DNA of 64,000 nucleotides, taken from a virus. Below, piece by piece: positions 1,593 through 27,260 of the stretch. The position numbers were made by a program, and so were the translations under genes. The stretch lies in the IMG/VR virus record IMGVR_UViG_3300027985_000286, positions 32,001-96,000 of that record; one strand, 5' to 3'. Positions within the stretch are counted from its first letter, which is position 1; each line of letters begins with the position of its first letter. Below the pieces are notes generated by a model. The model saw only the letters and a list, made by a program, of their open reading frames with translations. It ran no database searches and was not told the origin of the DNA.

Positions 1593-4226
1593 TTAGAAAA
1601 AAGACTGGGGAGGACCGTCTCTATCTTCTTCAAGCTTGGGCTTGAACTCTAAGTCCCAACCTATCAGCCCTGCAAAAGACTCGGCAGGCGAGACAAACGA
1701 CTTCTGGAAGATAGTTTCTCTGTCAACATATTGGTGAAGTTTAAACTCAGGAGGCAGTTCCTCTCTGAACGCAATCACATCTACATGATGGTGATTGGGC
1801 TTGAGCATAATATAGCGGATTTTCTCTTTATCTGCAATAGGAGGGATACTCTTAATCTCAAGCTTTCTTAGTATTGCATTATGGTAGATAGACCCCCGAA
1901 TGTGGGCTTGTACGCCCTTCACAGTAGGCATGCCTTTTGAGTCTGAGTACTTCTTGATACCATTTACACCTCTAGGCACTGCAATGGTTTCTACTGGCAT
2001 TGCTTGGTATTCTACCTTAACACCTCTGAAAAGTTCAAAGAGCGCTTCCTGGTCTTTCAGTAGACACGTCATGTACACCTTTTTTAGATACTCTCGCGCC
2101 CACTTTGGCGTAGACGACTTTACCGACTCAAGCCCCTGTACCTTCAAGTCAGGCTCGTAGTACCTAACGCCTTCGTTATCCCAGACTGCCATGGCGTAGT
2201 GTTTCTTTGAACTCCAGATCGCTACCTCTGCAATAGCCTCTCTCTTCATAAAGAGTTTCTGATCGTAACCGTTCAGGTACTCTCTTAAATTCTCGCAGGA
2301 CTGGTTGATAACAGGCTGGATCCTGGTTTCACAGAACTTATCCAGCATGGTAACGATGTCGTTGGTCGACGCTTTGGGGTTGAACTTGGTATACCTGTTG
2401 ACGATGTCACTAAGGTCAACGTACGATGAGTCTGTATCTGAGTATATCCACCTGGACTTTGTATCACCTAACACAGACATCAAGAACTCATCGATATCAC
2501 GAGATGCCCACCTTACTGCAGTCTGCCCACCTGTTGTGATTGCCTCTGCAACATCAATCTTGAAGTATTGGAAGAACTTGTTGGAGATTGCGCCATAACC
2601 AGAGTTCATAGCAATCTTGAGTGCCATCTGCATGGCATCCTTAGCTGCAACTGCGTTTTCGTAGAACTTCTTGTCCTCCTCGGTTGTTGCATCGACCTTC
2701 TTTTGTTTGAGCGCCAGCATCTCTTTCTTCACAACCTTTCTTTGGTTGTAGTAGAACTGCATCATCTCGCTAAGGAACGACCTGAAGTCTCTTCGGTACA
2801 AAGAACCATTAGGTGTAACACACAGGTTCAATGTCTTTGCGTAGTGCAGCAGAGTTTCTGATACCTCTTTGTTGACGCATGTATCAATGCTTACAGCGTC
2901 AATGTCACAGTCAAACTCAGAAGACTTTGCGTACCTAATTGCATCTTGGTCGTTTGACTTCATCAACGCTTGTCTAAAGTCAGACCTAGACACCCAGGTT
3001 TCCGGACCAAGATTCTGGTGCATGATAAGGTGTGGATACAGAGACGCAAAATCGAAAGATACAACCCAACGATACTTCCCTGCCTTAGGCTCCATGACAA
3101 ACCCGCCAGGAAACTCTCGGTATAGCTCTTTATTGGGGAAGACCGGTGGTATCTGTTTCTTGTCAAGGTACAGGTACGAATAGATCGCGTTGGTCCACAA
3201 TCTGGTAGTACCTAGCGTATCTGCGTAGTTTGACATCGTCAAGTAAGACAAAGCATACGTGATGTCTAGATACTTGAGTTTTCTATCTAGCTCAACAACA
3301 AGCTCAACGTCAACGATGTTGTAAACCTGGTAAAGCTGAGGATTCTCTCGTGCTAGATCCTGAAGGTTGTGGTTGCTGTAAGCCACCTTGTTACCTACAC
3401 CTTCTGCCTGAGCAATAAAGCCCAAGCGATACGATTCTCTTGTCAGGTACCTGTGCTTCTTGTAAAGACTGATATAGTCAAGGTCGGTCATACCTACGAT
3501 GTCAATCTTCTTGACCTCGTTTCCAAAATTAACTGTAGTCTCGACAACAAAAACACTCTCGAACGGACTGAGTTTTTTCGCCCATGTTTCACCCAAGACC
3601 TTACAAATGCGGAAGTACAGATACGGAATATCAAAAATCTCTGTATTCCATCCGGTGAAGTTATCGGCATTCATGGATGCCCAGAACTGAACAAATGCAA
3701 CCAATAAGTCGTGCTCACTATCAAACTTCTTATGCACCACGTTCAAGTGGGATATCATCGGGTCACTAGAATCAAAATCATACAGGCTCAGGCAAACGTA
3801 CGTATCTGTGATATTATCGTGTACGGTCAGGAGGTCAACAGGGTACTTTGCTTCTTCTGGATTTGGAAACTCGTCTGCATTAACCTCAATGTCCAAGGTT
3901 AGGGTTCTAATCTTACTCTTATCGTACTCAATCTTTCCGTACCTGTTGCATACCTCTTCCAGAGCAAAATCAGATGTACCGCAAAAGCTAACCCCTTCAA
4001 CACCTTTGTACGACTTCAGGAACTGCGATGCGTCTTTAGCTGAGCTAAAGCTCTTAGGTTTCAGAGATGTTCCGTAATAATCGGTATAACCAGACTCAAA
4101 GCTCGGGTCCCTTTCCCAGATAGTCGGCTCTAGCTCTACTATCACATTCTTTGTGTCTACATCATCCTGTTTTTCTCTTACCAGTACAGTGTTTCCCCAT
4201 CTACGATAGAAAGTGTAAAATGACAA
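1593..4226 (-). CDS. 43: Family B DNA polymerase (gp43)
   Basis: Exo motifs LDIEV, FTGWN..FDIPY, YNIVDV; polymerase motifs SFDFASLYP, KIAMNSGYG, YSDTDS; no intein evident. Confidence 0.97.
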   Translation of the reverse strand: MSFYTFYRRWGNTVLVREKQDDVDTKNVIVELEPTIWERDPSFESGYTDYYGTSLKPKSFSSAKDASQFLKSYKGVEGVSFCGTSDFALEEVCNRYGKIEYDKSKIRTLTLDIEVNADEFPNPEEAKYPVDLLTVHDNITDTYVCLSLYDFDSSDPMISHLNVVHKKFDSEHDLLVAFVQFWASMNADNFTGWNTEIFDIPYLYFRICKVLGETWAKKLSPFESVFVVETTVNFGNEVKKIDIVGMTDLDYISLYKKHRYLTRESYRLGFIAQAEGVGNKVAYSNHNLQDLARENPQLYQVYNIVDVELVVELDRKLKYLDITYALSYLTMSNYADTLGTTRLWTNAIYSYLYLDKKQIPPVFPNKELYREFPGGFVMEPKAGKYRWVVSFDFASLYPHLIMHQNLGPETWVSRSDFRQALMKSNDQDAIRYAKSSEFDCDIDAVSIDTCVNKEVSETLLHYAKTLNLCVTPNGSLYRRDFRSFLSEMMQFYYNQRKVVKKEMLALKQKKVDATTEEDKKFYENAVAAKDAMQMALKIAMNSGYGAISNKFFQYFKIDVAEAITTGGQTAVRWASRDIDEFLMSVLGDTKSRWIYSDTDSSYVDLSDIVNRYTKFNPKASTNDIVTMLDKFCETRIQPVINQSCENLREYLNGYDQKLFMKREAIAEVAIWSSKKHYAMAVWDNEGVRYYEPDLKVQGLESVKSSTPKWAREYLKKVYMTCLLKDQEALFELFRGVKVEYQAMPVETIAVPRGVNGIKKYSDSKGMPTVKGVQAHIRGSIYHNAILRKLEIKSIPPIADKEKIRYIMLKPNHHHVDVIAFREELPPEFKLHQYVDRETIFQKSFVSPAESFAGLIGWDLEFKPKLEEDRDGPPQSFF

Positions 4227-4237
4227 GCTGCACCTCT

Positions 4238-4957
4238 TTATGATAGGCTTTCTATGACTTCTTTTAGTACCATGTGGACTGTTCTTTCCGCTACGTGGTA
4301 ATTATAGGTTTTGGATAGAACAGTAACTCTAGCACAATCTGTGCTGGAAGAAAACATATTGTCCAAGAGGTAAGCAAAGTCTCTCCTCTCTTCTGATAGG
4401 TTCAGCGCGTTATGCGGATTAGCAACCCAAACAAAACCGGCCTTTCCTCTTTTGATATCTTTCTCGTAGTGACCAATAAAGGCTTTGATCTGGTCAATAC
4501 TATCATCTACCAAGATTGGTGCATGTCCGTAAGGCGTGTTCTTTCTGATGAAGTCAACTTTGGTTTCGTACAGAGGAAGGCAATCAATTTCGTCTGGCGG
4601 CTTACACGAAACGGCACTAAATTGAGTTGAGCTGTCAAACGCAGACAGAACATCAACGATGTTATTTTCTCTTAACCTCTTGGTTTTAGTGCTTGACCCA
4701 CAAGAAGATAAGAGGTGCGTACCTTGAAGGTGTCTGGCTAGAACCCTGGAGTTCTCTAGAGTGTTAAGGTTTCCGAAAAATTCGCTTTCGTTGAACTTGC
4801 GGACAGACGCGTCGAATTCTTCTTCACTCAGACCAAATCTAGGTAGCTTGTTTGCGTGCCATCCTAAACACTTATGCTCCACTCCGTTCATATATTCGCG
4901 GATACCTTCTTTCCAGTCAAGGATGGTATCGTCTACATCAATGAATGTTTTGTGCAT
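4238..4957 (-). CDS. HAD-family hydrolase, 5'(3')-deoxyribonucleotidase-like
   Basis: N-terminal IDVDDTI (DxDxT), LSS motif II, ILVDD motif IV. Confidence 0.65.
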   Translation of the reverse strand: MHKTFIDVDDTILDWKEGIREYMNGVEHKCLGWHANKLPRFGLSEEEFDASVRKFNESEFFGNLNTLENSRVLARHLQGTHLLSSCGSSTKTKRLRENNIVDVLSAFDSSTQFSAVSCKPPDEIDCLPLYETKVDFIRKNTPYGHAPILVDDSIDQIKAFIGHYEKDIKRGKAGFVWVANPHNALNLSEERRDFAYLLDNMFSSSTDCARVTVLSKTYNYHVAERTVHMVLKEVIESLS

Positions 4958-4970
4958 CGTACTTTACCTA

Positions 4971-5765
4971 CTAGACTGTTGGCATTTCGGAAATTTCTAC
5001 GGGTGTGATGTTTTTGGTTACAAGGTTTTGCATGTTAAGGTCATCTGTATTCGGGTTCTTTTTCTGCAATAGGTCTGCAATCATTTCTGCAACCTTTTTT
5101 GATTTCAAGGGGTGAACTGCATATTCTTCAAAATCCAGATAAGATCCGGTTGCTTCTCTAAACGTGACAAACCTCTTTAAGCACTGCCAACATTCACCAC
5201 AAGGAACACCATTATGACTATGCCAGCAAGAAGATGACTTCTTGCTGATATCATAAATGCTTACGCCGTGATTCAAGGCCCATCTAACAGCATCAACCTT
5301 AGTCCATCCTCTGTCGGCTAGTGGGAAAACCACTCTGACCTGTTCTTCCTTGAATGGAGACAAGGTGTAGGTTGTAAGACCAGATACCACGTCTCTAAAG
5401 AAGGCGTTCTTATCTGTAGCGTCAATATTTACCTCATCAACCAAAGATCCTAGCCATATCTCATCTGGCAGGAACTGGCAAGCAGCAAGGGTAACAAACA
5501 CTAGGTTTCTCCCTGGAATGTAGATACTACCCTTTAAAGGCTCGCTCTTCTTGGCGACGCAGCCAATACCATTCTTACCCAACCAGTCTACGTTCATGCG
5601 AATAACGTTTAGAGGGAGAAGGGAAACTTCCTCTTTCTCCGATTCTGCTCCGTGCGCATAATAAACGCACACAACATCGTCATCTTTATTTTCTACCTCT
5701 GACAACCTCTTCATTATGAAACTGTCTAGACCACCAGAGTAAAGGATTACAATCTTTTTACGCAT
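4971..5765 (-). CDS. queC: QueC-like 7-cyano-7-deazaguanine synthase
   Basis: SGGLDS PP-loop, YIPGRN, zinc site SC...PCGECWQC. Confidence 0.9.
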   Translation of the reverse strand: MRKKIVILYSGGLDSFIMKRLSEVENKDDDVVCVYYAHGAESEKEEVSLLPLNVIRMNVDWLGKNGIGCVAKKSEPLKGSIYIPGRNLVFVTLAACQFLPDEIWLGSLVDEVNIDATDKNAFFRDVVSGLTTYTLSPFKEEQVRVVFPLADRGWTKVDAVRWALNHGVSIYDISKKSSSCWHSHNGVPCGECWQCLKRFVTFREATGSYLDFEEYAVHPLKSKKVAEMIADLLQKKNPNTDDLNMQNLVTKNITPVEISEMPTV

Positions 5766-6150
5766 CGTCGTGTCTCACGTTTTCTTTTTCTACAAGGTTA
5801 TGATGAAGAAGGACGATATTAACCCAAGGGCAAGCCTTCTTTATGATTTCTGCCTGAATCTGGTCATCCTCAAAATGGATATCTATCCGTTTTCCAGAGT
5901 CCTTAAGCATAGTAATCACTTCAGCCTTATGAAGAGCAGAGCTCTCTCTAGTCTTTTGATTGAACGGAAGAGGATTGTAAAACACTCTGTTCGCAATGCC
6001 TAGCCCACCTAGAAATCTTTCTGTTTCGGGCATCTCTTCAAAAGACCTACCTGTGATGATAACGTCAGAGTGACATGGTCGGACCCCAGTCCGACCATGT
6101 CCCATAAAGATTACACCGTCAATATCGAATGAGTTCATACTAGAACTCAT
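5758..6150 (-). CDS. Small capless HAD-family phosphatase (start may be ATG at 6138)
   Basis: SFDIDGV motif I, ITGR motif II, conserved K, HFEDD motif IV; overlaps both neighbours. Confidence 0.75.
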   Translation of the reverse strand: MSSSMNSFDIDGVIFMGHGRTGVRPCHSDVIITGRSFEEMPETERFLGGLGIANRVFYNPLPFNQKTRESSALHKAEVITMLKDSGKRIDIHFEDDQIQAEIIKKACPWVNIVLLHHNLVEKENVRHDDA

Positions 6151-7264
6151 TCGTGAGGTAGTAGGTAGGGATCTCTCTGGCAGCTAGGTACTCACATTCT
6201 GCCTTCGCTTCCGAGTACATCATTTGCATTGGAGGTGTCTTCTGAGTCCACGCGCTAGGTCCACGAAGAGAACCTTTAATGCCCAATTCCTGAGCCACCT
6301 TTAGATACCTGATAGCATCAATAACAACACCCGCAGAATTTTCACTATCTTGGACTGACAGCTTGATATCAACTGTAATCTCAGCCCCTCCGAAAGATTC
6401 AAGGATGACGTTGAAGTAAGCAACCTTATTGTCTTTCAGGTACGGAATAAAGGTACTTGGCCCAGCGAACAACGTATCCTTTTCCATAGGAATACCACGT
6501 ATGTCATTCTGAGCCCTAATGACATTCTCTTTGCTAATCTTCTTGGAAGACAGCCTGTTAGGGTTCATCATGTTGGCGAAGTCTGTATTTCCACCAACAT
6601 TCAGTTGCTGATGGAACTTTACCTTGCACCCTCTGTCAAAGGCGAGCTCCTGAATAACCTGAGACAAGATAGATGCACCAACTTGACTACGCATATCATC
6701 ACCAATAAGAGGAAGACCGGCATCAATAAACCTTTTCTCCCACTCAAGGTTAGACGCAATGAATACTGGAATACAGTTTAAGAAAGGAATACCTGCATCA
6801 ATAGCACTCTGCGCGTAGAACTCAGTACCAACCTGAGACCCCACAGGGAGATAGTTAATGAGCATCTGTGCACCACTGTCTCTGAGGGCTTGAGCTACAT
6901 CAACAGGCTCTTCCTTGGCAATTTTGAAATTGATTGTATCGTGGAAGTTCTCCATATGAAGTGAGACACCATCACAAACTCTACCCATTTGAACCGTACA
7001 CTTGTCATCAATCTGAGTATGAAACACGCGGCAACAGTTGGGCTCTTCGAACATTGCAACATGAAGAGGCTTACCAACCTTTCTTTCATCAACATCAAAA
7101 GCAGCAACTACCTCAATGTCTGTTGGTCCATAACCACCGATGTCTTTAAACATAATACCAGGAAGACTATCCTGATTATTGTGACGATAGTAGTTGATGC
7201 CCTGAATCAGGGCAGATGCGCAGTTACCAACTCCCGCGATAGCAACCTTAATTTTTTCAGACAT
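6140..7264 (-). CDS. ino1: myo-inositol-1(3)-phosphate synthase
   Basis: VAIAGVGNCASAL NAD-binding start, NYLPVGS, GDDMRSQVGA, QLNVGGNTDF, SKKISK, DSENSAGVVIDAIR. Confidence 0.93.
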   Translation of the reverse strand: MSEKIKVAIAGVGNCASALIQGINYYRHNNQDSLPGIMFKDIGGYGPTDIEVVAAFDVDERKVGKPLHVAMFEEPNCCRVFHTQIDDKCTVQMGRVCDGVSLHMENFHDTINFKIAKEEPVDVAQALRDSGAQMLINYLPVGSQVGTEFYAQSAIDAGIPFLNCIPVFIASNLEWEKRFIDAGLPLIGDDMRSQVGASILSQVIQELAFDRGCKVKFHQQLNVGGNTDFANMMNPNRLSSKKISKENVIRAQNDIRGIPMEKDTLFAGPSTFIPYLKDNKVAYFNVILESFGGAEITVDIKLSVQDSENSAGVVIDAIRYLKVAQELGIKGSLRGPSAWTQKTPPMQMMYSEAKAECEYLAAREIPTYYLTNEF

Positions 7265-7341
7265 GTCTGTTTCCTTTAGAGTTAAAGGGTGGAAAGGCCT
7301 AAGGAAAACACCCCAAAAGCGACGCCTTTATGTCAATCTAT

Positions 7342-7370
7342 ATAGTAACACTTTCAGAGATACTAGTCAA
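7342..7370 (-). promoter_or_regulatory. Sigma70-like promoter upstream of ino1-HAD-queC-HAD-gp43
   Basis: TTGACT-N17-TACTAT on minus strand. Confidence 0.6.
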
Positions 7371-8691
7371 ACAAAGAGTCTAACGTTCCTCTTTGAGTTG
7401 TTATTTTTGATGCTTTAAACCCAACTCTTGTCAAGGTACTGCCGTTCTTTTCGTTTGTTATGACCAAATTGGTATTGAACCTGTTGTTGGATACGGTTCT
7501 ATAGTCGCCAACGTGACTAAAGCTATCACTTCGTCCTAAACTAGAAAAATAATCATCCAACCTTACTGTTTCTTGAACCGTTGCGAGACCGCCTCTCAGT
7601 GGTCTTGCAACTTTCTCTTGCATGACACCCTCTACAAACCTTAACCAGGTTTCGTCTACATCTCTGGAGTATGATACTGCCTGAGAGTTGTTATAAACTC
7701 TAGAAGAAGCCAGTAGCTGTTTGATTTTCTCTGTAACGCTACTCAATGACTCCAAGTGCGCCCATTTTTCGTGCATTAGCGTCCATGGCATCTCTTTTAG
7801 AACAACAACAGGGCAAGAAAAAGCCTCTTCAATCACACCGTAGCCGAAAGTCTCCATCTTAGCTGGATGGTAAGCCACTTTGGCCTTAGAAATGAAGTCA
7901 ACCTTAGCAGCCCCTGTTAAACTATGTCGAATCTCATACTCCTTAACTCCGTTATCTTCGAGAGACCTTCTGAACTTCTCAGCGCTGGAACCAGATGTCA
8001 TTACTAGAGCTTTGCACTTCAGTTCTTTCACAACTCTAATGAACTCTTCTGGATTTTTTCTATCCTGGTACGTTCCGATAAACAGCAACCCTTCTTTACT
8101 TGGATAGAGGTTCGCGTATTCTAAGGATGGTTCTGCTATGGGTAAAGGAAGGCACACCCCTTTTGATGTTGGTGGTATCAACTTTAGATTATCGTTTGAC
8201 TGACTTCCTATTACCACGTTCTTACTAAGAAGAGACAACAACCATTCTTGGTACGGTCTGTTGAACACTGACTTTTTAGCAAGTAAAACCGATTCCGGGT
8301 TATGGGTGTAGTACACTACTGGAACGTTCAGATCCAAAGATACAATTGGATCAAGAGCCTCTTCATCATTGACAATGATTAAGTCATACACTGATTCTCT
8401 AATAGCGTCAATCAAAGCGTTCCTAAAGTTTACCTGTCTCTCAAAGCAAAGTCCATCACTGAACATGAATATCTTCTTATGGTGGCTATAAGCCAACGGA
8501 TCTTTAGGGCTAACTACCTTGCACTCCTTTTCAACATCTGGGTGCAGTCTTCCTCTCATTAAGGGTGAGTCTACAACAATATCAACAACCCACCCATACT
8601 TCTTCGCCATAAGATGAAACCCCTTGATAAAGGTCCCAACACCACCATTAATAGACAAATATCGATTCGAAACGACCTGACACACTCGCAT
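7363..8691 (-). CDS. GT-B fold (GT4-like) glycosyltransferase with C-terminal clamp-binding-like peptide
   Basis: N-terminal GGVG loop, LLFIG...RKN, ETFGYGVIEE (E-x7-E) motif; ends TLDSLFD. Confidence 0.85.
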   Translation of the reverse strand: MRVCQVVSNRYLSINGGVGTFIKGFHLMAKKYGWVVDIVVDSPLMRGRLHPDVEKECKVVSPKDPLAYSHHKKIFMFSDGLCFERQVNFRNALIDAIRESVYDLIIVNDEEALDPIVSLDLNVPVVYYTHNPESVLLAKKSVFNRPYQEWLLSLLSKNVVIGSQSNDNLKLIPPTSKGVCLPLPIAEPSLEYANLYPSKEGLLFIGTYQDRKNPEEFIRVVKELKCKALVMTSGSSAEKFRRSLEDNGVKEYEIRHSLTGAAKVDFISKAKVAYHPAKMETFGYGVIEEAFSCPVVVLKEMPWTLMHEKWAHLESLSSVTEKIKQLLASSRVYNNSQAVSYSRDVDETWLRFVEGVMQEKVARPLRGGLATVQETVRLDDYFSSLGRSDSFSHVGDYRTVSNNRFNTNLVITNEKNGSTLTRVGFKASKITTQRGTLDSLFD

Positions 8692-8699
8692 GGTAACTC

Positions 8700-9983
8700 C
8701 TAGTCAAAGAGATCATCCAGAGACGATACGTTTGCCGCTTTCGTTTCCAGCCTTTGACTGTGAACCTTAGGTCCAATAGTTTTTGACCACTTAATGAATT
8801 CGTTATAGTCAGTAACTTGCAACAAGGTAGATAGAATAGATTGCCCTTCTCTAGACAACCATTTCAATAGGGAAGACTCTTCCCTAAACAAGGAGTTCAC
8901 GTGGTAGGTGAAATTGGCTATACTAGCAAACGCAGCAGCAACCATGAACACATGATATTGTTCAACTCTGTCTTCAGAAGAAAAATAGTCCCAGCTCCTC
9001 TTTGAAGAGTTTGTTGTCAACGACTCAACCACATCGCTCAAAGAAAACCTAGCACCCACATCACCAAAGTACCTTATGATATCCCTATGGTATTCTTCTA
9101 TTACCTTAACGTTGGTTGTTCCATAGAGCTGAAGCTTACCTCTACTGTTTAGGTAAGACCCGTTACTGAGCTTCATGGTATGAGACGTTGAATCGTAAGA
9201 TAGGTGCGTGTTCTGGTTAAGGTAACCAGTTTGATACAAGATAGCAGAGGGGAAAAGCCTAGCGATGCTTCCAACACCCAAAAGGTGCACGTTGGCTTTG
9301 ATGTCTTCCTCACACGGGAGAACAGGTACAGATGCCGCCCTTTCAATAGCTTCAAGAAGACCGTTACCGATAGACGTACCAGCAATTGATACACCTGCAA
9401 TCTGACAGTGCATGTCTATTGGGACCTCTTTAAGAAGAACCTCAACCCAACGTTGAAACCAATAGATCCCATTACCCTGCACGATCATCATAGGCTTGGT
9501 TTTATAGCCATGGGTCCTAAAGTACTCAATCTGAGATGCGAGATTGTACCCTGACTTCTTAGCGTACGAGTCGAAGTTATCTTTATCAAATCTCTTGCTA
9601 TTCAGGTCATTAATGACTGACCGGTTGTTGACTACAACAGGGACCTCATCAAAAGACATTGCGACTGTTGAGTGCTTCCCTTGTTTTTCATAAACAGCCT
9701 GCCTAAGACTGTCAGTAATCATTTTTCCTAGAGTAACGACCTGTAGGCCTCCCGAATCTGCATGTACGCTAGAAACGCTCTTAAATCTGTCATACGCTGC
9801 ACCAAACTTCTTTTCAGTATGCGCGTTGAACAAAATTCCATAACTATGACCGTGCGCTCCTTGTATAGGAGCAAACACCTCTTTGTCAATCCTATCCAAT
9901 ACGCTGTTGTTCTGGTAGCTTCTACTTAGAGCGAACCGGGTATGACCCATTCCTGAAGCAATGTACTCTAGATTAAGTGGCAT
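8700..9983 (-). CDS. DpdA/TGT-family guanine transglycosylase (candidate DNA 7-deazaguanine inserter)
   Basis: ADSGGLQ, SFDE, IVQG, VHLLGVG, SYDSTS motifs of the TGT fold; adjacent to folE; ends SLDDLFD. Confidence 0.8.
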   Translation of the reverse strand: MPLNLEYIASGMGHTRFALSRSYQNNSVLDRIDKEVFAPIQGAHGHSYGILFNAHTEKKFGAAYDRFKSVSSVHADSGGLQVVTLGKMITDSLRQAVYEKQGKHSTVAMSFDEVPVVVNNRSVINDLNSKRFDKDNFDSYAKKSGYNLASQIEYFRTHGYKTKPMMIVQGNGIYWFQRWVEVLLKEVPIDMHCQIAGVSIAGTSIGNGLLEAIERAASVPVLPCEEDIKANVHLLGVGSIARLFPSAILYQTGYLNQNTHLSYDSTSHTMKLSNGSYLNSRGKLQLYGTTNVKVIEEYHRDIIRYFGDVGARFSLSDVVESLTTNSSKRSWDYFSSEDRVEQYHVFMVAAAFASIANFTYHVNSLFREESSLLKWLSREGQSILSTLLQVTDYNEFIKWSKTIGPKVHSQRLETKAANVSSLDDLFD

Positions 9984-9985
9984 GT

Positions 9986-10663
9986 TTAGTTTCGGATTAG
10001 GCTAGTAAACTCTTTTCTAGTACTCTCATTTTCAATGAAAGCACCGTTCAAAGATGTTGAAGTCGTCTCCGATCCAGCATCTTCAATACCCCTCGAAATC
10101 ACGCAATAGTGCTTCGCAGTAATAGACACTGCCACATCATTCGTATCAAGGATGTACTTGAGCGCCTCTGCAATCTGCACAGTAAGCCTCTCTTGAACCT
10201 GAGGCCTGCGTGAGAAGTAGTCCACAATGCGGTTAATCTTGCTCAGGCCAATCACCTTAGCCTTAGGGATATAGGCTACAGTAGCCTTGCCATCAATAGT
10301 AACACCGTGATGCTCACACGCAGACATCACCCGAATGCCACGCTCTACGAGCATCTCATCGTACCCCATCTTATTCTCGATGGTGGTACACTTAGGGAAA
10401 TACTCTGGCTTCAAACCCCAGAACAGCTCGTTGACGAACATCTTAGCAATTCGGTTGGGTGTATCCCTCAGAGAGTCGTCTTGCAGGTCCATGCCTAAGA
10501 TAGACCAGATTGACTTCATGTGAGCACGAATATCTTTAATCTTTTCCTCGTCATCACCTCTTAGATGAGTCTCGATGACAGGGGTTTGCAACTTGAGCTT
10601 TAGGAGGTGCTCTTGAACTCTGAGACCCAGCACCTCATCACACTTAGACTTATCCGGCTTCAT
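9986..10663 (-). CDS. folE: GTP cyclohydrolase I
   Basis: TPNRIAKM, SACEHH, GLSKINR, RRPQVQERLT, HYCVISRG. Confidence 0.95.
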   Translation of the reverse strand: MKPDKSKCDEVLGLRVQEHLLKLKLQTPVIETHLRGDDEEKIKDIRAHMKSIWSILGMDLQDDSLRDTPNRIAKMFVNELFWGLKPEYFPKCTTIENKMGYDEMLVERGIRVMSACEHHGVTIDGKATVAYIPKAKVIGLSKINRIVDYFSRRPQVQERLTVQIAEALKYILDTNDVAVSITAKHYCVISRGIEDAGSETTSTSLNGAFIENESTRKEFTSLIRN

Positions 10664-10686
10664 TCGGTTTCCTTAAAGGTAAGAAA

Positions 10687-10715
10687 GGGTGGTGTAGGAG
10701 ACTCCTACACCACCC
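10687..10715 (-). terminator. Intrinsic terminator of the GC-rich HTH gene
   Basis: Perfect inverted repeat GGGTGGTGTAGGAG-A-CTCCTACACCACCC followed by TTTCTT on minus strand. Confidence 0.75.
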
Positions 10716-10738
10716 AGCTTAGTTAACACCGGTGGGCA

Positions 10739-11275
10739 TCAGTAAGCCACACCATCTCGCATCTCATCCACAGTGTCCCGCACGTAGCTGGAGGCGAGGG
10801 CCTTGTTGCTGTTGAAGAGGTCCACAGCGGCCTTCTCGATGACCGCCTTCTCCGACTCCTTCACCTTCTCCATATCCGACCCAGCCTTCAGGAGGTCGGC
10901 GTCCATCATTTCCTTGACCATCCGGATGACGTCCCCCTTCTTGCTGGAAATCAGCGTGCGCTTCCGATACACGCTCTTGCCGTTACGATACTTGACCTCA
11001 CGGTCAATGTGCACCACGTTGCCGTCGCTCGGGGCCGGGGCCGGGGCCGGGGTGGTCACCGCCTCTTCGGGCTGGGCCGGGTCAACATCCACCAGCTTCA
11101 GGGCCGGCGCAGCCTGCGGGATGCCAGCCTTGGCCCACCGACGGGCGCTGGAGACCGAAACACTGTGCTTCGCGGCCGCAGCAGCCGGGCTCATACCGTT
11201 GGACATATCCGCGATCACCGCATTCTTCACCTTCATGTCAATTGCGTTCGAGTTCATGTTGTTACTCCTTTCCAT
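10739..11275 (-). CDS. Putative HTH DNA-binding protein, GC-rich stand-alone transcription unit
   Basis: N-terminal MSPAAAAAKHSVSVSSARRWAK is HTH-like; PAPAPAP linker; G/C-ending codons dominate; own promoter and terminator. Confidence 0.55.
   Translation of the reverse strand: MERSNNMNSNAIDMKVKNAVIADMSNGMSPAAAAAKHSVSVSSARRWAKAGIPQAAPALKLVDVDPAQPEEAVTTPAPAPAPSDGNVVHIDREVKYRNGKSVYRKRTLISSKKGDVIRMVKEMMDADLLKAGSDMEKVKESEKAVIEKAAVDLFNSNKALASSYVRDTVDEMRDGVAY
11031..11052 (+). repeat. (GGGGCC)3GGGG tandem repeat encoding the PAPAPAP linker
   Basis: Read directly from the sequence. Confidence 0.85.
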
Positions 11276-11319
11276 TGTCTAGTAGTGTTCTGGCCCTTGC
11301 CAGCGTGTTTTGTGTTTCC

Positions 11320-11356
11320 ACAGTATGAATAATACTGTCTTTTAGATATCTTGCAA
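11320..11356 (-). promoter_or_regulatory. Early-type promoter with overlapping inverted repeat
   Basis: (CC)TTGCAA-N16-TATTAT on minus strand; ACAGTAT-N5-ATACTGT at 11320-11338 covers the -10 box. Confidence 0.5.
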
Positions 11357-11400
11357 GGCTTTTCTGCACAAGAGTTTCTTATGAGAATGATAAATTTTAC

Positions 11401-12282
11401 TTATGTCCCCCAGCTGTTCCCGAACAGGTCAATGTGAAGCCTGGGGCTGTACCGGTAGCCATACTTCATTGCAAGGTTAGCCACAGTGGTTGAATTCTTG
11501 ATGTAGTCTTCATAAGTACCACCAACAGGCATCAGGTACACCGGTACGCTAAACGGTAGTTTGGCATATTCCATGAACTCGCCAACCTCGAACACATCTT
11601 GTTCATCCTGAACAACGAACTTGAGAACTGGTTGTGCTCCGGATTCAAACAACGTATTGACCGCATCGTAAGACCATGCCTTCTCCCTACTCTCTCCAGA
11701 TGCTCTCATCTTCGGTGAGATTGACAGTGTGATGCAATCTAGGTCAATAAGGCTCCCTCCGGCGATTAGAGCACCGTTAACACACCAAAAGTCCGACGGC
11801 CACGCTTGCGTGCCATTCGTCTCAAACGTGATATGCTGAAGTCCGTTCTCACGACAGAGTATGTCAATCGTCTCTAACAGACCTTTAGCGTTCTTCTGAA
11901 GCAGAGGCTCCCCGCCTGTAATAACAAGGTGCGTGTTCTCGTCAAACTGCTCATCAAAGAACAGTCCCCCGTTCACCTCAACAATCTTATATGCTAACTC
12001 CTTAGGGGTCATCTCAGTGCTCATATGCTTGAAACGCTTATCCCAAGCAGCGTAGCTATCACACCCAGTCTTGACAAGAGGAAGATCTTTGATGCTACCA
12101 TATTGATAAAATAGAGCAGCTACGGAGTCACGTTCCTTGGACTTCTGACCTTCAGGCATGCCAAACCCTGCGCACTGAAGATTGCATCCAAAGAGGCGCA
12201 CAAACACCGAAGGAGTGCCTACATGCAGGCCCTCACCTTGAATAGACTTGAACACCTCAACAACAGTTAGATTGCTGCTCAT
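11401..12282 (-). CDS. queE: QueE 7-carboxy-7-deazaguanine synthase (radical SAM)
   Basis: EVFKSIQGEG...PSVFVRLFGCNLQC...GCDS, VITGGEPLLQ, FETNGT, SISPK, RLHIDL; likely start MSSNLTVV at 12282. Confidence 0.92.
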   Translation of the reverse strand: MSSNLTVVEVFKSIQGEGLHVGTPSVFVRLFGCNLQCAGFGMPEGQKSKERDSVAALFYQYGSIKDLPLVKTGCDSYAAWDKRFKHMSTEMTPKELAYKIVEVNGGLFFDEQFDENTHLVITGGEPLLQKNAKGLLETIDILCRENGLQHITFETNGTQAWPSDFWCVNGALIAGGSLIDLDCITLSISPKMRASGESREKAWSYDAVNTLFESGAQPVLKFVVQDEQDVFEVGEFMEYAKLPFSVPVYLMPVGGTYEDYIKNSTTVANLAMKYGYRYSPRLHIDLFGNSWGT

Positions 12283-12790
12283 CTTTCTTCTCCATATACT
12301 TTTCCATGAACTCTTCGTAGCGGATAGACATTGTAGCATGGTACTCACGAGGGTTCATATTACACTTTACTGATGGCTTGCTTGAGTTCGTCAACCCTGC
12401 CGATAGGGTGAAAACCTTCTGCCTACTATGACCTGCTCCCCTACCAGACCAGTACACTACTTCTATGAGTTGCGTCTTGTCTTTATTTAGAATCCTGAAG
12501 ATCTCAGAATCGTTAACTCTAAGGAGTGCAGTACACCTAGCCATCACTTCGATTTGTTTCTGCTTGGGTAAGCAAGACTGCTCTGTGGGATATACCTTGA
12601 TTGTTGAGCCGTCAACAAGGTTGAGGTAATCTGTAAGGCCACCAACAGGACAGTTGGTGTTAGCGTCAATGGTTACGCAGTAGTAACCTGTCTGCTTGTT
12701 TGATTCCTGAATGAATCCAATGCCATCGAAAGCATAGTACAGTTCTGGATATAGAGTTCGTTTCTGTCTAATAGCAACAACTCTTGTCAT
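12257..12790 (-). CDS. Hypothetical protein
   Basis: 177 aa ORF co-oriented, with RBS, overlapping the queE start. Confidence 0.6.
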   Translation of the reverse strand: MTRVVAIRQKRTLYPELYYAFDGIGFIQESNKQTGYYCVTIDANTNCPVGGLTDYLNLVDGSTIKVYPTEQSCLPKQKQIEVMARCTALLRVNDSEIFRILNKDKTQLIEVVYWSGRGAGHSRQKVFTLSAGLTNSSKPSVKCNMNPREYHATMSIRYEEFMEKYMEKKDEQQSNCC

Positions 12791-13208: not shown

Positions 13209-13727
13209 TTACACCTTATCACCAACGTAGAAAAGACCATCAGACTCCAGGTCAGGAGTAAAGAACGTTTCCTTGCTCTTAAGGAATTTGCCGGCAGGGA
13301 AGAACTTACCGTTGTCGTCGGTATGATCCTTCACTACACGTAGAGCATACGCAGATTTCTTTTTGAACTCCACCGGGAAGATTATGCAGTCCACACCATG
13401 CTTGAGCTTGTACGTCTCAGCTGTTCGGTAAGCGCACTCGTAGGTAGGACACAGCTTGCTCATGTTACTATCAAAGACTCGACGCATCCCTTCATCGGCG
13501 TCCATCCCCATAACATACGCAAGGCCATAAGCAACAACCAGGAGGTCCAAGCACCCGTCTGCCATCTCCTTGATATCCTTTTTCTCGAAACCCTCAAAGA
13601 CCTCTCCAGCTTCCTCTCGGATGAGGTCTACGTACATCGAAACCGGACCCCAGTCCAGATTACGAACGTCCCCTCTCACATTGCCAAACACCTCGTTCAT
13701 TACTGCAACATCTGAAAAGTTGCTCAT
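13209..13727 (-). CDS. MazG-like (all-alpha) nucleoside triphosphate pyrophosphohydrolase
   Basis: LIREEAGE, EMADGCLDLLVVAYG, VFDSNMSK. Confidence 0.85.
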   Translation of the reverse strand: MSNFSDVAVMNEVFGNVRGDVRNLDWGPVSMYVDLIREEAGEVFEGFEKKDIKEMADGCLDLLVVAYGLAYVMGMDADEGMRRVFDSNMSKLCPTYECAYRTAETYKLKHGVDCIIFPVEFKKKSAYALRVVKDHTDDNGKFFPAGKFLKSKETFFTPDLESDGLFYVGDKV

Positions 13728-18671: not shown

Positions 18672-19157
18672 TCACAGCTTCGAATAGTCATACGCATCAA
18701 CCTCCCATGGGAATTTAATCCAAGTGTTTGCATCTTTATTCACACGTCTTGCTGCATAATCACAAGTGAAAGAGCTATTGGTGTTCTCAATCAATACCGC
18801 AGACTTGCACCTGTCAGAAGTTTGAAATCTGGACATCACATGGTCTAACGTCGCACCGCTATCGTTAATATCATCAACAATCAGCACATTTGACTCACTC
18901 TGAGAAAGTAGGTCAAAGATGCTGCCGTCCTCGTAAGATAGGTGCCCGTTGTCGTTTCTGCCATTATAGTGGCTAACGAAGTAGGTGTAAACAGAGCCAA
19001 CGTTCAACTGATGGCTAAGAATGGTTGCAGGAACCATTCCACCTCGAACCAACGCAAGAATGCAGTCTGGCTTGAAACCTGAAGTTTGAACGAGAAGACA
19101 GAGGTCACGGACATTATCCAACACTTCCTGAAACGACAATTCCTTATCAGCCATCAA
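18672..19157 (-). CDS. Type I phosphoribosyltransferase (xanthine/guanine PRT-like)
   Basis: LVRGGMVPA, VLIVDDINDSGATL PRPP loop, WIKFPWE. Confidence 0.88.
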   Translation of the reverse strand: MMADKELSFQEVLDNVRDLCLLVQTSGFKPDCILALVRGGMVPATILSHQLNVGSVYTYFVSHYNGRNDNGHLSYEDGSIFDLLSQSESNVLIVDDINDSGATLDHVMSRFQTSDRCKSAVLIENTNSSFTCDYAARRVNKDANTWIKFPWEVDAYDYSKL

Positions 19158-24963: not shown

Positions 24964-25653
24964 TTGCACACAAGCGTGACTGGCATGGCTGATACCCCAA
25001 CTAAATCAAAGCAAGAAGCTCTAGAACGAGAACTGGACAAGAGTAGACCAGCTCTTGTCCGTACCCTCATCAAAAGATACCATCGTGACTTCGGTGCTAA
25101 CGCAGCACGTCACTCTCGTAGAAGTAGACAATGGTTTAGAGAGCAAGCGACTAAGATAGGCAAGGTTCGCACATCCAAGATCATGAAGGCTCAATGGATT
25201 GCGGACAAGCCTAAAATTGGTCGCTTGTACCTGTACCAGTACGATGCCAAGACTAAAGATACGTTACCATATTGGGATATGTTCCCATTGGTGTTCTTCT
25301 TCAACTCTTGGACAGGTAAGAATGGAAAGAAGTACCTAATTGGTATCAATCTTCATTACCTGCAGCCTGCTCTCAGAATGTACCTTTTTGCTGAGTTGCT
25401 TTCGCTAAGAAACGAAAAGAGGTACAGACCTAATACACGACTCAAGATATCGTGGGAGATACTACAGCGATTTGCCAACTTCAAGCTGGTTCAACCTTGT
25501 GTTAAGAAGTACCTAGTGGAGCACATCCGTTCGAAGTTTATTGAAATCCCGTCCGAAGATTGGGAAATTGTCATCCCGTTGGGTCTGGAGAGATTCCAGA
25601 AGGCAGCTTCAGCTAAGGTTTGGTCAGACTCAGCTAAAGGTAGAACAAAGTGA
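24964..25653 (+). CDS. 2: DNA end protector protein (gp2)
   Basis: GRLYLYQYDAKTKDTLPYWDMFPLV, GINLHYL, PCVKKYL; true start probably the ATG of MADTPT. Confidence 0.9.
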   Translation: MHTSVTGMADTPTKSKQEALERELDKSRPALVRTLIKRYHRDFGANAARHSRRSRQWFREQATKIGKVRTSKIMKAQWIADKPKIGRLYLYQYDAKTKDTLPYWDMFPLVFFFNSWTGKNGKKYLIGINLHYLQPALRMYLFAELLSLRNEKRYRPNTRLKISWEILQRFANFKLVQPCVKKYLVEHIRSKFIEIPSEDWEIVIPLGLERFQKAASAKVWSDSAKGRTK

Positions 25654-26504
25654 TAAGCACAAGCGAGATTCTCAATGACATCAAGCTTAACGGTATTGCT
25701 AGGAAGAACCGGTTCCTGGTAGAAATCCAGATACCGGACAAGGTTGTTGAAGCTGCAGCTGCCAAAGGCGTTAAGGTAGACAGTAGAACCTTATCTCTGA
25801 GATGTTACAGCACACAGCTTCCACCGAAATCTATTGCCAGCACTGATGTTAAGATTGGTGGTGTTAACCAGAAGATTCCTTACAGCAGAACCTTTGATGA
25901 TGTGACCATGACGTTTCTCATTGAGCGCAACATGAACACTAAGAAGGTTTTTGATATTTGGCAAGATGTGATCGCCCCTAATGACTTCGGGCATGTTGCC
26001 TATGCTGACGATATCTCAACAACTGTCTCGGTTAGCCATATCACGAACACAGATACGATTGAGTACACTCTATTCCTAAAGAAGGCATACCCAATTATCG
26101 TTAACTCACTGGATTATGCCAACGACGACAACGAGAGCTACCAGGCTCTAGGCGTTACGTGGACATTTAGAACTGTATCCTCTACAATGGACTCCAAGGA
26201 GACTAAGCTAACCACGCTACCTTCATTCGATGTATTCAATAAGGACGGGTTTACTGTTGCATCTGTGATGGAGTTTACCAACCAGCTGGCTAGCTTCAAC
26301 CTTCAAGGAGAGGCTCTCCTGTGGTACCAGAAGGCAGATAACTTTGTGGGAGGGTTCACCGGTGGTTACGGCATAAACAGCATTGGTTCTCTTGTTAAGA
26401 GGATGGAGTTTTCTGTTACCAATAACATCAGGTTCCTAGAATCTGATAGAGCTAAAATCACAACCGCTATCAGCTCTCTTAAGAGCAAGCTTGGTATCAA
26501 TTAA
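25650..26504 (+). CDS. 54: Baseplate tail tube initiator (gp54-like)
   Basis: ARKNRF.V, C....LP, F..WQD gp19-like fold; synteny. Confidence 0.7.
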   Translation: MISTSEILNDIKLNGIARKNRFLVEIQIPDKVVEAAAAKGVKVDSRTLSLRCYSTQLPPKSIASTDVKIGGVNQKIPYSRTFDDVTMTFLIERNMNTKKVFDIWQDVIAPNDFGHVAYADDISTTVSVSHITNTDTIEYTLFLKKAYPIIVNSLDYANDDNESYQALGVTWTFRTVSSTMDSKETKLTTLPSFDVFNKDGFTVASVMEFTNQLASFNLQGEALLWYQKADNFVGGFTGGYGINSIGSLVKRMEFSVTNNIRFLESDRAKITTAISSLKSKLGIN

Positions 26505-26516
26505 GGAGATGACTAC

Positions 26517-27260
26517 ATGGCATTGCCCAAACTAAAGGTTCCTGTTTCTAGACTGAAGTCTATGGATGGAAAGGTGACCTATACTATTCGTCCTTTCTCT
26601 AACAAAGAACAGAACATTCTGCTCATGGCCAAGGAGTCGGTTAAGGCTTCTACTGACAAGCGTCAGGCTATGAAAGCTGTGGTAGAGTCAATGGAACAGG
26701 TAATCGGTAACTGCTTGATTGATGCAAATATTGATGACATTCCTTGGTATGACTTCCAGTTTCTGATGATTGAGATTCGTAAGATTAGCGTAGATAATAT
26801 CTCTAAACTCAGCTTCAAGTGCACTAGCACCAAGGAAGACGGTAGCAAGTGCAACACACCTTATACCATCGGTGTCAACTTAGATAAGATTGAGGTTGTA
26901 GGCAAGGTCCCAGAGACTAAAGATGATAGAGTTATTGATATTGACGGTAACGTGAGCGCGTACATGAGGCATCCTACTTTCAAGATGTTCAAGTCAATCT
27001 ACCTCGATGACTTGAACGAGTATAATGCTCTACGCATGTTCATTGAGTACGTGTTTGATAAGGAAGGCAACATATACCCAATGGCTGAAGCAACAGATCA
27101 AGAGCTTGAAGAATTCTTGGAAGATGCCGGTCCAAACATGAAAAAGATCCAAGACTGGATTGAGTCTGCGCCCAAGCCGTATTACCGACTTGAATATACT
27201 TGCAGAGGGTGTGGAAACAAAAAGGTAATTGAGCTGAGGACCCCCGACGATTTTTTTTAA
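26517..27260 (+). CDS. 26: Baseplate hub assembly protein (gp26)
   Basis: MALPKL, RPF..KE..ILL, Cys pairs, ends DDFF. Confidence 0.85.
   Translation: MALPKLKVPVSRLKSMDGKVTYTIRPFSNKEQNILLMAKESVKASTDKRQAMKAVVESMEQVIGNCLIDANIDDIPWYDFQFLMIEIRKISVDNISKLSFKCTSTKEDGSKCNTPYTIGVNLDKIEVVGKVPETKDDRVIDIDGNVSAYMRHPTFKMFKSIYLDDLNEYNALRMFIEYVFDKEGNIYPMAEATDQELEEFLEDAGPNMKKIQDWIESAPKPYYRLEYTCRGCGNKKVIELRTPDDFF

Follow-up and report, generated by a model that had tools for sequence, protein, structure and literature searches.

A 7-deazaguanine DNA-modification cluster with inositol-phosphate synthase, phosphatase and glycosyltransferase genes in an uncultured T4-like phage: a candidate hypermodified base

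IMG/VR record IMGVR_UViG_3300027985_000286 (G000; 149,348 bp, estimated completeness 87%) represents an uncultured virus, and the gene content of the 64-kb stretch analyzed here (bases 32001-96000 of the record; hereafter, the window) is that of a T4-like phage. Its minus strand carries a run of genes in which enzymes of a 7-deazaguanine DNA-modification pathway are combined with a glycosyltransferase (GT), a myo-inositol-3-phosphate synthase (Ino1) and two phosphatases of the haloacid dehalogenase type (HAD). On this strand, gp45, gp44, gp62, RegA, a MazG-like pyrophosphohydrolase and two small open reading frames (ORFs) of unknown function precede QueE, which is followed by a 178-aa protein of unknown function, FolE, a DpdA-like protein, a GT-B type GT, Ino1, a 130-aa HAD, a QueC-like protein, a 239-aa HAD, gp43 and UvsX (Table 1). 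The cluster occupies the variable slot between regA and gp43, the 'DNA-modification slot' of T4. A first-pass annotation, made from the sequence alone, had named eight genes here, from QueE to the second HAD, and all were confirmed in place by profile, homology or motif evidence. It had also described most of the gaps as lying between -11 and +13 nt, with the run leading straight into gp43; the gaps from FolE to gp43 are, in sequence, +2, +8, +98, -11, -8, +13 and +11 nt, so the only exception is the space between the GT and Ino1, where a promoter-like site falls (a consensus match only). Two features had been passed over: the 178-aa ORF, for which there is no homologue in any of the related loci compared, and a terminator-like hairpin that splits this ORF and QueE from FolE. 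The QueE frame extends upstream to a GTG at 12348, and the ATG at 12282, preferred from the beginning, is the probable start, as it has a GGAG-rich leader and agrees with the homology. A megablast comparison of the 8-kb run with GenBank phages found nothing. The arrangement is not a product of chance, since these genes adjoin one another in the same way in dozens of independent viral contigs.

Table 1. Genes and signals of the modification cluster and associated features (window positions, except for QueD)
Feature	Position	Strand	Evidence
NT5C-type HAD, 239 aa	4238..4957	-	DVDDT motif; PHROG 420
Divergent QueC-like PP-loop ATPase	4971..5765	-	Pfam QueC 3e-12
Minimal HAD phosphatase, 130 aa	5758..6150	-	HAD motifs I-IV
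Ino1, myo-inositol-3-phosphate synthase family	6140..7264	-	PF01658 5.9e-23; 1GR0 2.2e-86
Sigma-70-like promoter match, TTGACT-17-TACTAT with TG	7342..7370	-	Consensus match only
Retaining-type GT-B glycosyltransferase	7363..8691	-	EX7E motif, fold
DpdA2-type DNA guanine transglycosylase, 427 aa	8700..9983	-	tblastn homology, TGT fold
FolE, GTP cyclohydrolase I	9986..10663	-	Pfam 2.4e-58; NF006824 2e-90, over cut-off
Terminator-like hairpin	10687..10715	-	13-bp stem, 8 G-C pairs, T-rich tail
178-aa Ala/Pro-rich protein	10739..11275	-	Weak HTH_23 match (0.0037) only; singleton in clustering
QueE-like radical-SAM CDG synthase	11401..12282	-	PHROG 2076 5.6e-55; TIGR03365 4e-17, under cut-off
gp43 family-B DNA polymerase	1593..4226	-	Pfam DNA_pol_B 1.5e-24; starts 11 nt past the cluster
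XGPRT-like phosphoribosyltransferase	18672..19157	-	Pfam Pribosyltran 3.2e-15
QueD	G000:25175-25654, ~6.3 kb before window start		CxxxHGH motif

The pathway to 7-carboxy-7-deazaguanine (CDG) and preQ0 is co-encoded with a DpdA2 protein: FolE and QueE lie in the run itself, and QueD lies outside the window in the same record. The cysteine of the CxxxHGH motif is retained in QueD, which is therefore identified as such rather than as DpdL, the Cys-to-Leu form described by Cui et al. 2023 (PMC10516641). There was no Pfam match for the DpdA2 protein; the Pfam profile for tRNA-guanine transglycosylases (TGT) misses DpdA2, as is known for the family, and the assignment therefore relies on homology to the phage nt-1 protein and on a fold search. 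By tblastn it shares 29-31% identity, at 96% coverage and E-values of 1e-42 to 1e-44, with the DpdA2 proteins of Vibrio phages nt-1 (YP_008125322) and VH7D. The nt-1 protein is the one that defined DpdA2 (Hutinet 2019, PMC6884629), and both have been shown to place preQ0 and preQ1 in DNA, along with trace amounts of CDG (Cui 2023, PMC10516641). The nearest relatives are found in phages BUCT-ZZ01 (35% identity) and ACP17 (34%). An AlphaFold model (pLDDT 81.6) was compared with the PDB using Foldseek, and all 50 of the matches listed were TGTs (E ~1e-7). Residues D76 (in DSGGLQ) and D264 (in YDS) are invariant across 18 homologues and, by motif likeness, may correspond to Asp102 and Asp280 of the Z. 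mobilis enzyme. The absence of QueF, previously noted for the window, extends to the whole 149-kb record (87% complete), where neither a QueF, a second TGT nor a second QueC was found. A QueF signal at E 0.001 was discarded, as it falls within FolE and is due to the T-fold common to both. By homology, FolE, QueD and QueE are predicted to take GTP to CDG, and DpdA2 to exchange a deazaguanine for guanine in the phage DNA. These data support the locus as a DpdA-type deazaguanine DNA-modification cluster to which genes have been added that no described end product would explain, as the first-pass annotation had also supposed.

A role in tRNA modification, with the cluster supplying a queuosine-like base to tRNA and not to DNA, would fit the labels given to homologous genes in the papers on Stenotrophomonas Menderaviruses, where they are annotated as tRNA queuosine enzymes. 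This is highly improbable, as the transglycosylase is homologous to DpdA2 proteins shown to act on DNA, no tRNA genes were found anywhere in the 64-kb window, and no QueA, QueG or QueF was found in the record. Among the loci compared, a family of ~280-300 aa with no Pfam match (e.g., L018:8686-9534) stands where DpdA2 would be expected, beside QueC-like and FolE genes. It is present in L018, L021, L066-L070, L076-L078 and L088-L090, and may represent another DpdA subfamily.

The first of the added elements is the pair formed by Ino1 and the 130-aa HAD. Ino1 matches the Mycobacterium tuberculosis enzyme (1GR0) over its full length (residues 2-358), and exceeds the gathering score of PF01658 (81.5 against 27 bits). 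With TIGR03450 it scores 336.5 bits over the full length, which is under the equivalog cut-off of 638. The small HAD keeps the motifs DIDGV, ITGRS, K and EDD across 17 homologues, and its one profile match was to PHROG 415 (the phosphatase part of PNK), with none in Pfam. Because the second-best PDB sequence match of Ino1 is 6K96, a five-membered-cyclitol-phosphate synthase (1.2e-51), the homologue could conceivably make another cyclitol, in which case the attached group, or a carbocyclic nucleoside, would not be inositol. The sub-cut-off TIGR03450 score and the recurrence of a phosphoribosyltransferase in related clusters would suit such a product, which we nevertheless consider very unlikely given the far stronger, full-length match to a true Ino1.

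The distribution of this pair was followed through about 170 viral loci in all, in samples of 32-80 loci per scan, so that totals are to be read as minimum values. With Ino1 alone as bait, 35 loci were recovered (32 from IMG/VR and three from cultured phages), and in most of these the HAD gene immediately follows Ino1. At least 30 have the pair directly flanked by a coupling-type enzyme, either an amino-acid:DNA transferase (ADDT) or a QueC-like protein. In the deazaguanine context, seen in the window, the Menderaviruses, L007, L018, L021, L024 and L035, the pair immediately precedes the QueC-like gene within clusters of FolE, QueE and DpdA. In the thymine context it lies between ADDT (PF18724, 7e-18) and a small P-loop protein, and the neighbors are a TET/JBP oxygenase (8e-25), a GT-B or TAGT-like protein, or a 5-hydroxymethyldeoxyuridine (5-hmdU) kinase-like protein with one resembling T4 beta-glucosyltransferase; Caulobacter phage Cr30 is a cultured example. 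The two contexts are interleaved on the Ino1 tree, where the well-supported branches force at least eight switches. The Ino1-HAD pair is therefore regarded as a mobile module, since it changes context and yet keeps turning up within hypermodification operons, next to the enzyme coupling a nucleophile with an activated base. The pair would then be a portable 'nucleophile supply', plugged into unrelated base pathways, of deazaguanine and of thymine. The only clear exceptions to the Ino1 pattern are L031 and L032, in which an isolated Ino1 gene on the opposite strand is surrounded by genes of unknown function, one of them for a 1637-aa protein, with no HAD and no recognizable modification gene.

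Hypermodification of thymidine, as in phages ViI, M6 and the like, reportedly involves a 5-hmdU kinase together with an amino-acid:DNA transferase. Clusters of this type resemble the one described here in having the same Ino1-HAD pair, in Cr30 and many contigs, and in the general scheme of an activated base that meets a nucleophile supplied by the phage; they differ in the base, thymine, and in the use of pyrophosphorylation and not adenylation. The possibility that inositol feeds such a thymine pathway elsewhere in the genome was set aside, as a search of the 149-kb record (87% complete) for TET/JBP, 5-hmdU kinase and ADDT (PF12851, PF18723 and PF18724) gave nothing at E<=1. The deazaguanine pathway is therefore the sole candidate user of inositol in this phage.

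The gene following the pair encodes a QueC-like protein with the motifs SGGLDS (PP-loop), PGRN, TDKN and C-x8-CxxCxxC. The SGGLDS motif and the four zinc cysteines (C180, C189-x2-C192-x2-C195) align with those of Bacillus subtilis QueC (3BL5), and TDKN takes the place of a different conserved middle stretch in the canonical enzyme. It passes the Pfam QueC profile (46.9 bits, gathering score 22) and falls under the equivalog cut-offs of TIGR00364 (36.6 against 150.3 bits) and NF008317 (27 against 378), which makes it a member of the QueC family whose equivalence in function is not established. The record has no other gene of the QueC family. A tblastn search of 50,697 GenBank phage records (E<1e-3) found relatives in Stenotrophomonas Menderaviruses only; among the viral loci, a scan with the single protein gave three and an alignment query 51 more. 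The order Ino1-(HAD)-QueC-like was seen in about 22 loci, and stays constant while the order of DpdA, FolE and QueE around it varies. Of approximately 40 members of the QueC-like clade, about 24 have Ino1 as the gene just before them. Members without Ino1 upstream have an S-adenosylmethionine (SAM) methyltransferase or a phosphoribosyltransferase in its place. The QueC-like proteins linked to Ino1 form one clade (SH-aLRT 92), the sister of which consists of eleven proteins without Ino1. There is one true exception in the clade, L042, and one apparent exception, L051, where the contig end has cut Ino1 off. Both this tree and that of Ino1 were quick searches with SH-aLRT support only. Four positions (H38, F90, Q194 and K197) separate the linked clade from its sister, too few to argue for an altered substrate.

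The first-pass annotation had proposed two routes to an inositol-bearing base, transfer by the GT on DNA, or adenylation of CDG by the QueC-like enzyme and coupling of its carboxyl to an inositol-derived nucleophile. The second fits better, both in the recurrent placement of Ino1-HAD upstream of the QueC-like gene and in the single clade formed by the linked QueC-like proteins. The Menderaviruses (Moby, IME-SM1, Ps15 and others) bear on this point, as their cluster comprises only folE-ino1-HAD-queC-like-dpdA-queE, and no other coupling enzyme is therefore available there. Identity with the proteins of the window is 61% for Ino1, 50% for the HAD, 46% for the QueC-like protein and only 29% for DpdA; these viruses differ in having no GT and no NT5C-like HAD, and in the location of the cluster, which follows uvsX and does not precede gp43.

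Several variants were seen among the QueC-like loci. In L045, L061 and L073, Ino1 and the QueC-like gene are separated by a SAM methyltransferase gene, which replaces the HAD in two of the three and hints at a methylated cyclitol or a methylated variant of the base. In the sister clade without Ino1 (L057-L064 and L071-L079), the QueC-like genes are flanked by SAM methyltransferases or a phosphoribosyltransferase, and then by conserved proteins of ~480 aa (L060:8755-10197) or ~397 aa (L065:8830-10023) with no Pfam match that may be further, undescribed deazaguanine tailoring enzymes. The QueC-like ORF of L035 (526-1686) is 386 aa, about 120 aa over the length of its relatives, and is either a fusion or has a miscalled start.

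The second added element is the GT. All three of its Pfam GT matches are under the gathering scores, and the assignment is supported by the EX7E motif (E280-x7-E288) which, together with R211 and K212, is invariant among the homologues; 53 homologues were recovered from a large protein collection. The model fold resembles MshA, SPS, OtsA, BshA and PimA (Foldseek E-values of 1e-13 to 1e-10), and the best match is MshA (3c4q). This says little about the acceptor, because phage DNA glycosyltransferases give similar matches to the folds of MshA, BshA and SPS (PMC13326640; bioRxiv 2023.12.21.572611). A scan with a GT alignment gave 80 loci, with FolE in 77, QueE in 74 and DpdA adjoining in 67, the usual order being QueE-[PRT]-FolE-GT-DpdA. 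Only one of these loci (L148) also has Ino1, HAD and QueC-like genes, and most Ino1-QueC-like loci have no GT. The GT family, coupled to DpdA without Ino1, and the Ino1-QueC-like set, mostly without GT, are therefore two independent modules that have been combined here. The trio of Ino1, HAD and QueC-like genes was found joined to the GT only in the window, L024, L056 and L148 among the loci compared. Typical GT clusters continue with a DpdL-like LxxxHRHxF protein, a second, weak GT-B protein, often an NDP-sugar epimerase or dehydratase, and QueD. Neither the DpdL-like protein nor the second GT occurs in the window, L024, L056 or L148, and the two sets appear to be different options for handling the CDG carboxyl in a shared framework of GT and DpdA2. 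A pterin-glycoside role (FolE, a PTPS-like protein and GT, as in cyanobacteria) was discounted, given the coupling of the GT to DpdA and QueE and the absence of tetrahydrobiopterin glucosyltransferase from the fold matches listed.

Linkage of ino1 and of the GT to dpdA and que genes in other phages had been named beforehand as a test of the proposal, and it was found for both genes. The likeness drawn to the Ino1/MshA/phosphatase start of mycothiol synthesis, on the other hand, is not supported by the same comparison. In such a route the GT would glycosylate inositol-3-phosphate, the HAD would dephosphorylate the product, and the QueC-like enzyme would ligate it to CDG, or it would be put to some other use. 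The likeness is real in several respects: Ino1 is of the actinobacterial type, the GT is GT4-like with an MshA fold match, and these genes and a phosphatase (MshA2 in mycothiol synthesis) are contiguous, as they are in L024, L056 and L148; moreover, SPS and OtsA, next among the fold matches, are GTs with phosphorylated acceptors that pair with HAD phosphatases. We consider it quite unlikely in view of the 79 GT loci that lack Ino1, HAD and QueC-like genes and have the GT coupled to DpdA instead, and of the many Ino1-QueC-like loci without GT. In addition, the GT has no match to the NCBIfam MshA model, and no deacetylase or ligase of the MshB or MshC type, nor MshD, was seen.

From these observations a working scheme can be drawn. 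Ino1 and the small HAD would convert glucose-6-phosphate to free myo-inositol, and the QueC-like enzyme would adenylate the 7-carboxylate of CDG, with inositol as the nucleophile instead of, or besides, ammonia. The product would be a cyclitol-bearing base, loosely comparable to queuine, and DpdA2 would place it in DNA. Eukaryotic TGT accepts the bulky queuine. The GT would add a sugar from a nucleoside diphosphate sugar to the modified base, either before or after insertion, and virion DNA carrying such a base would be expected to be shielded from restriction and other nucleases. We put the probability that inositol, the sugar added by the GT, or both, end up on the base at roughly 0.5, judging from gene content and neighborhoods. 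The specific route by which the QueC-like enzyme forms an ester between the CDG carboxyl and inositol is a tentative suggestion, and equally tentative is the complete product, a 7-deazaguanine with inositol at the 7-carboxyl that is further glycosylated, and so a DNA counterpart of glycosylated queuosine.

A number of points weigh against this proposal. All of the QueC hallmarks tested (PP-loop, PGRN and four zinc cysteines) are kept by the QueC-like protein, which may be the plain preQ0 or 7-amido-7-deazaguanine (ADG) synthase of this phage group. The usual nucleophiles of PP-loop enzymes are nitrogen or sulfur, and we know of no precedent for one that forms an ester to an inositol hydroxyl. 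Much of the linkage could be explained by vertical inheritance, because the link between Ino1 and the QueC-like gene has one origin on the tree. Some co-location is also to be expected, because all of the loci belong to T4-like or large phages in which modification and accessory genes share a hyperplastic region. For the GT, whose acceptor would be the modified base, the partner in most loci is the DpdL-like protein and not a QueC-like one.

Taken together, such points would describe an ordinary dPreQ0 or dADG system with unrelated accessory genes, in which inositol serves host metabolism, the GT has some other target, and the genes have come together through the hyperplastic gp43 region. This is unlikely in our view, even though the sister QueC-like clade works without Ino1, the cluster sits in the variable regA-gp43 slot, and ino1 is described in the Ps15 paper as a bacterial-like gene acquired separately. 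Unrelated accessory genes would not be expected to be inserted in modification operons so that stop and start codons overlap, as Ino1-HAD is in three unrelated kinds of cluster, or to land again in modification clusters, beside ADDT or a QueC-like gene, through repeated changes of context; and the GT family is itself found next to DpdA in most of its loci.

Among described systems, the DpdA2 systems of nt-1 and VH7D (PMC6884629, PMC10516641) are closest in their core. They also occur in T4-like phages, with FolE, QueD, QueE, a QueC-family enzyme and DpdA2 (~30% identity), and carry out a post-replicative base exchange in DNA, a process for which the cluster in the window is a candidate by its gene content. 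They differ in having canonical QueC and QueF, ArcS or DpdM, with dPreQ0, dPreQ1, dG+ or mdPreQ1 as products, whereas the cluster in the window lacks QueF, ArcS and DpdM and adds Ino1, HAD and the GT; its QueC-like protein is not linked to QueC of nt-1 or VH7D by tblastn at E<1e-3. The DpdL-type clusters include those of Cellulophaga phage phiST (dDG), Acidovorax phage ACP17 and Synechococcus phage BUCT-ZZ01. The cultured phage BUCT-ZZ01 has a GT of the same family beside DpdA (30% and 35% identical to those of the window, respectively), with no QueC and no Ino1, and ACP17 has the DpdL-like protein and the second GT of the GT-type clusters. About 75 uncultured relatives of BUCT-ZZ01 likewise have this GT family beside DpdA. 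In this type the companions of the GT are a second GT, the DpdL-like LxxxHRHxF protein and, in many cases, a sugar epimerase, and QueC is absent, whereas the window has QueC-like, Ino1 and HAD genes in place of DpdL and the second GT. Outside phages, preQ0 is modified by a GT and a methyltransferase during huimycin synthesis (PMC7439116), and the huimycin and dapiramicin clusters share with these loci a preQ0 pathway, an enzyme of the general GT-B type and SAM methyltransferases, which also flank the sister QueC-like genes; they differ in that their products are small-molecule antibiotics, made by actinomycetes, and in lacking both DpdA and inositol. CDG amide ligases have been described in roseomycin-type clusters (bioRxiv 10.64898/2026.04.15.718813). 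No paper was found in the literature that links Ino1 or a glycosyltransferase to phage deazaguanine modification, nor any that describes a DNA purine bearing a sugar or cyclitol, and the text of Cui 2023 (PMC10516641) contains no word beginning 'glycosyl'.

If the proposal is correct, the base would belong to a new chemical class of DNA base, a QueC-family enzyme could be retuned as a ligase, and phages would be passing a pair of substrate-supply genes from one hypermodification pathway to another, unrelated one. To our knowledge, the substituent at position 7 is small in all eight known 7-deazaguanine DNA modifications. A bulky one would be expected to stop restriction enzymes and other defenses aimed at DNA, and such bases could serve in enzymatic DNA labeling. 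Each theme is present in cultured phages: the inositol kit in the Menderaviruses, the GT in BUCT-ZZ01 and ACP17, and the thymine version in Cr30.

The second HAD (239 aa), directly before gp43, had been counted among the phosphatases of the cluster, and it resembles a deoxynucleotidase and not an inositol-pathway enzyme. It is similar to viral NT5C clusters (Atlas feature score 0.95, structure TM 0.67-0.8) and is probably a 5'(3')-deoxyribonucleotidase, judging from these feature and model comparisons. As a homologue is absent from all of the related loci compared, this HAD is treated as a part of nucleotide housekeeping and not of the inositol route. The phosphoribosyltransferase gene, well separated from the cluster in the window, has homologues between QueE and FolE in BUCT-ZZ01 and in 18 GT-type loci, and may salvage the guanine freed by DpdA; together with the NT5C-like HAD it would handle nucleotide and guanine turnover. 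In L057-L064, the gene that immediately precedes the QueC-like one encodes a different phosphoribosyltransferase.

The cluster is bracketed by two genes of nucleotide metabolism, the MazG/PRA-PH-like pyrophosphohydrolase (13209-13727, minus strand) that adjoins RegA, and the NT5C-like HAD that adjoins gp43. Together they could run a drain from deoxynucleoside triphosphates (dNTP) through the monophosphates (dNMP) to deoxynucleosides; in Cr30, a PRA-PH gene also follows RegA. The G+C content of positions 10001-12000, which span QueE, the 178-aa ORF and the start of FolE, is 0.507, compared with 0.42-0.45 in the adjacent 2-kb blocks. Further along the window, at about 25000-27000, the GC skew flips sign, which corresponds to the switch of the coding strand from minus to plus.

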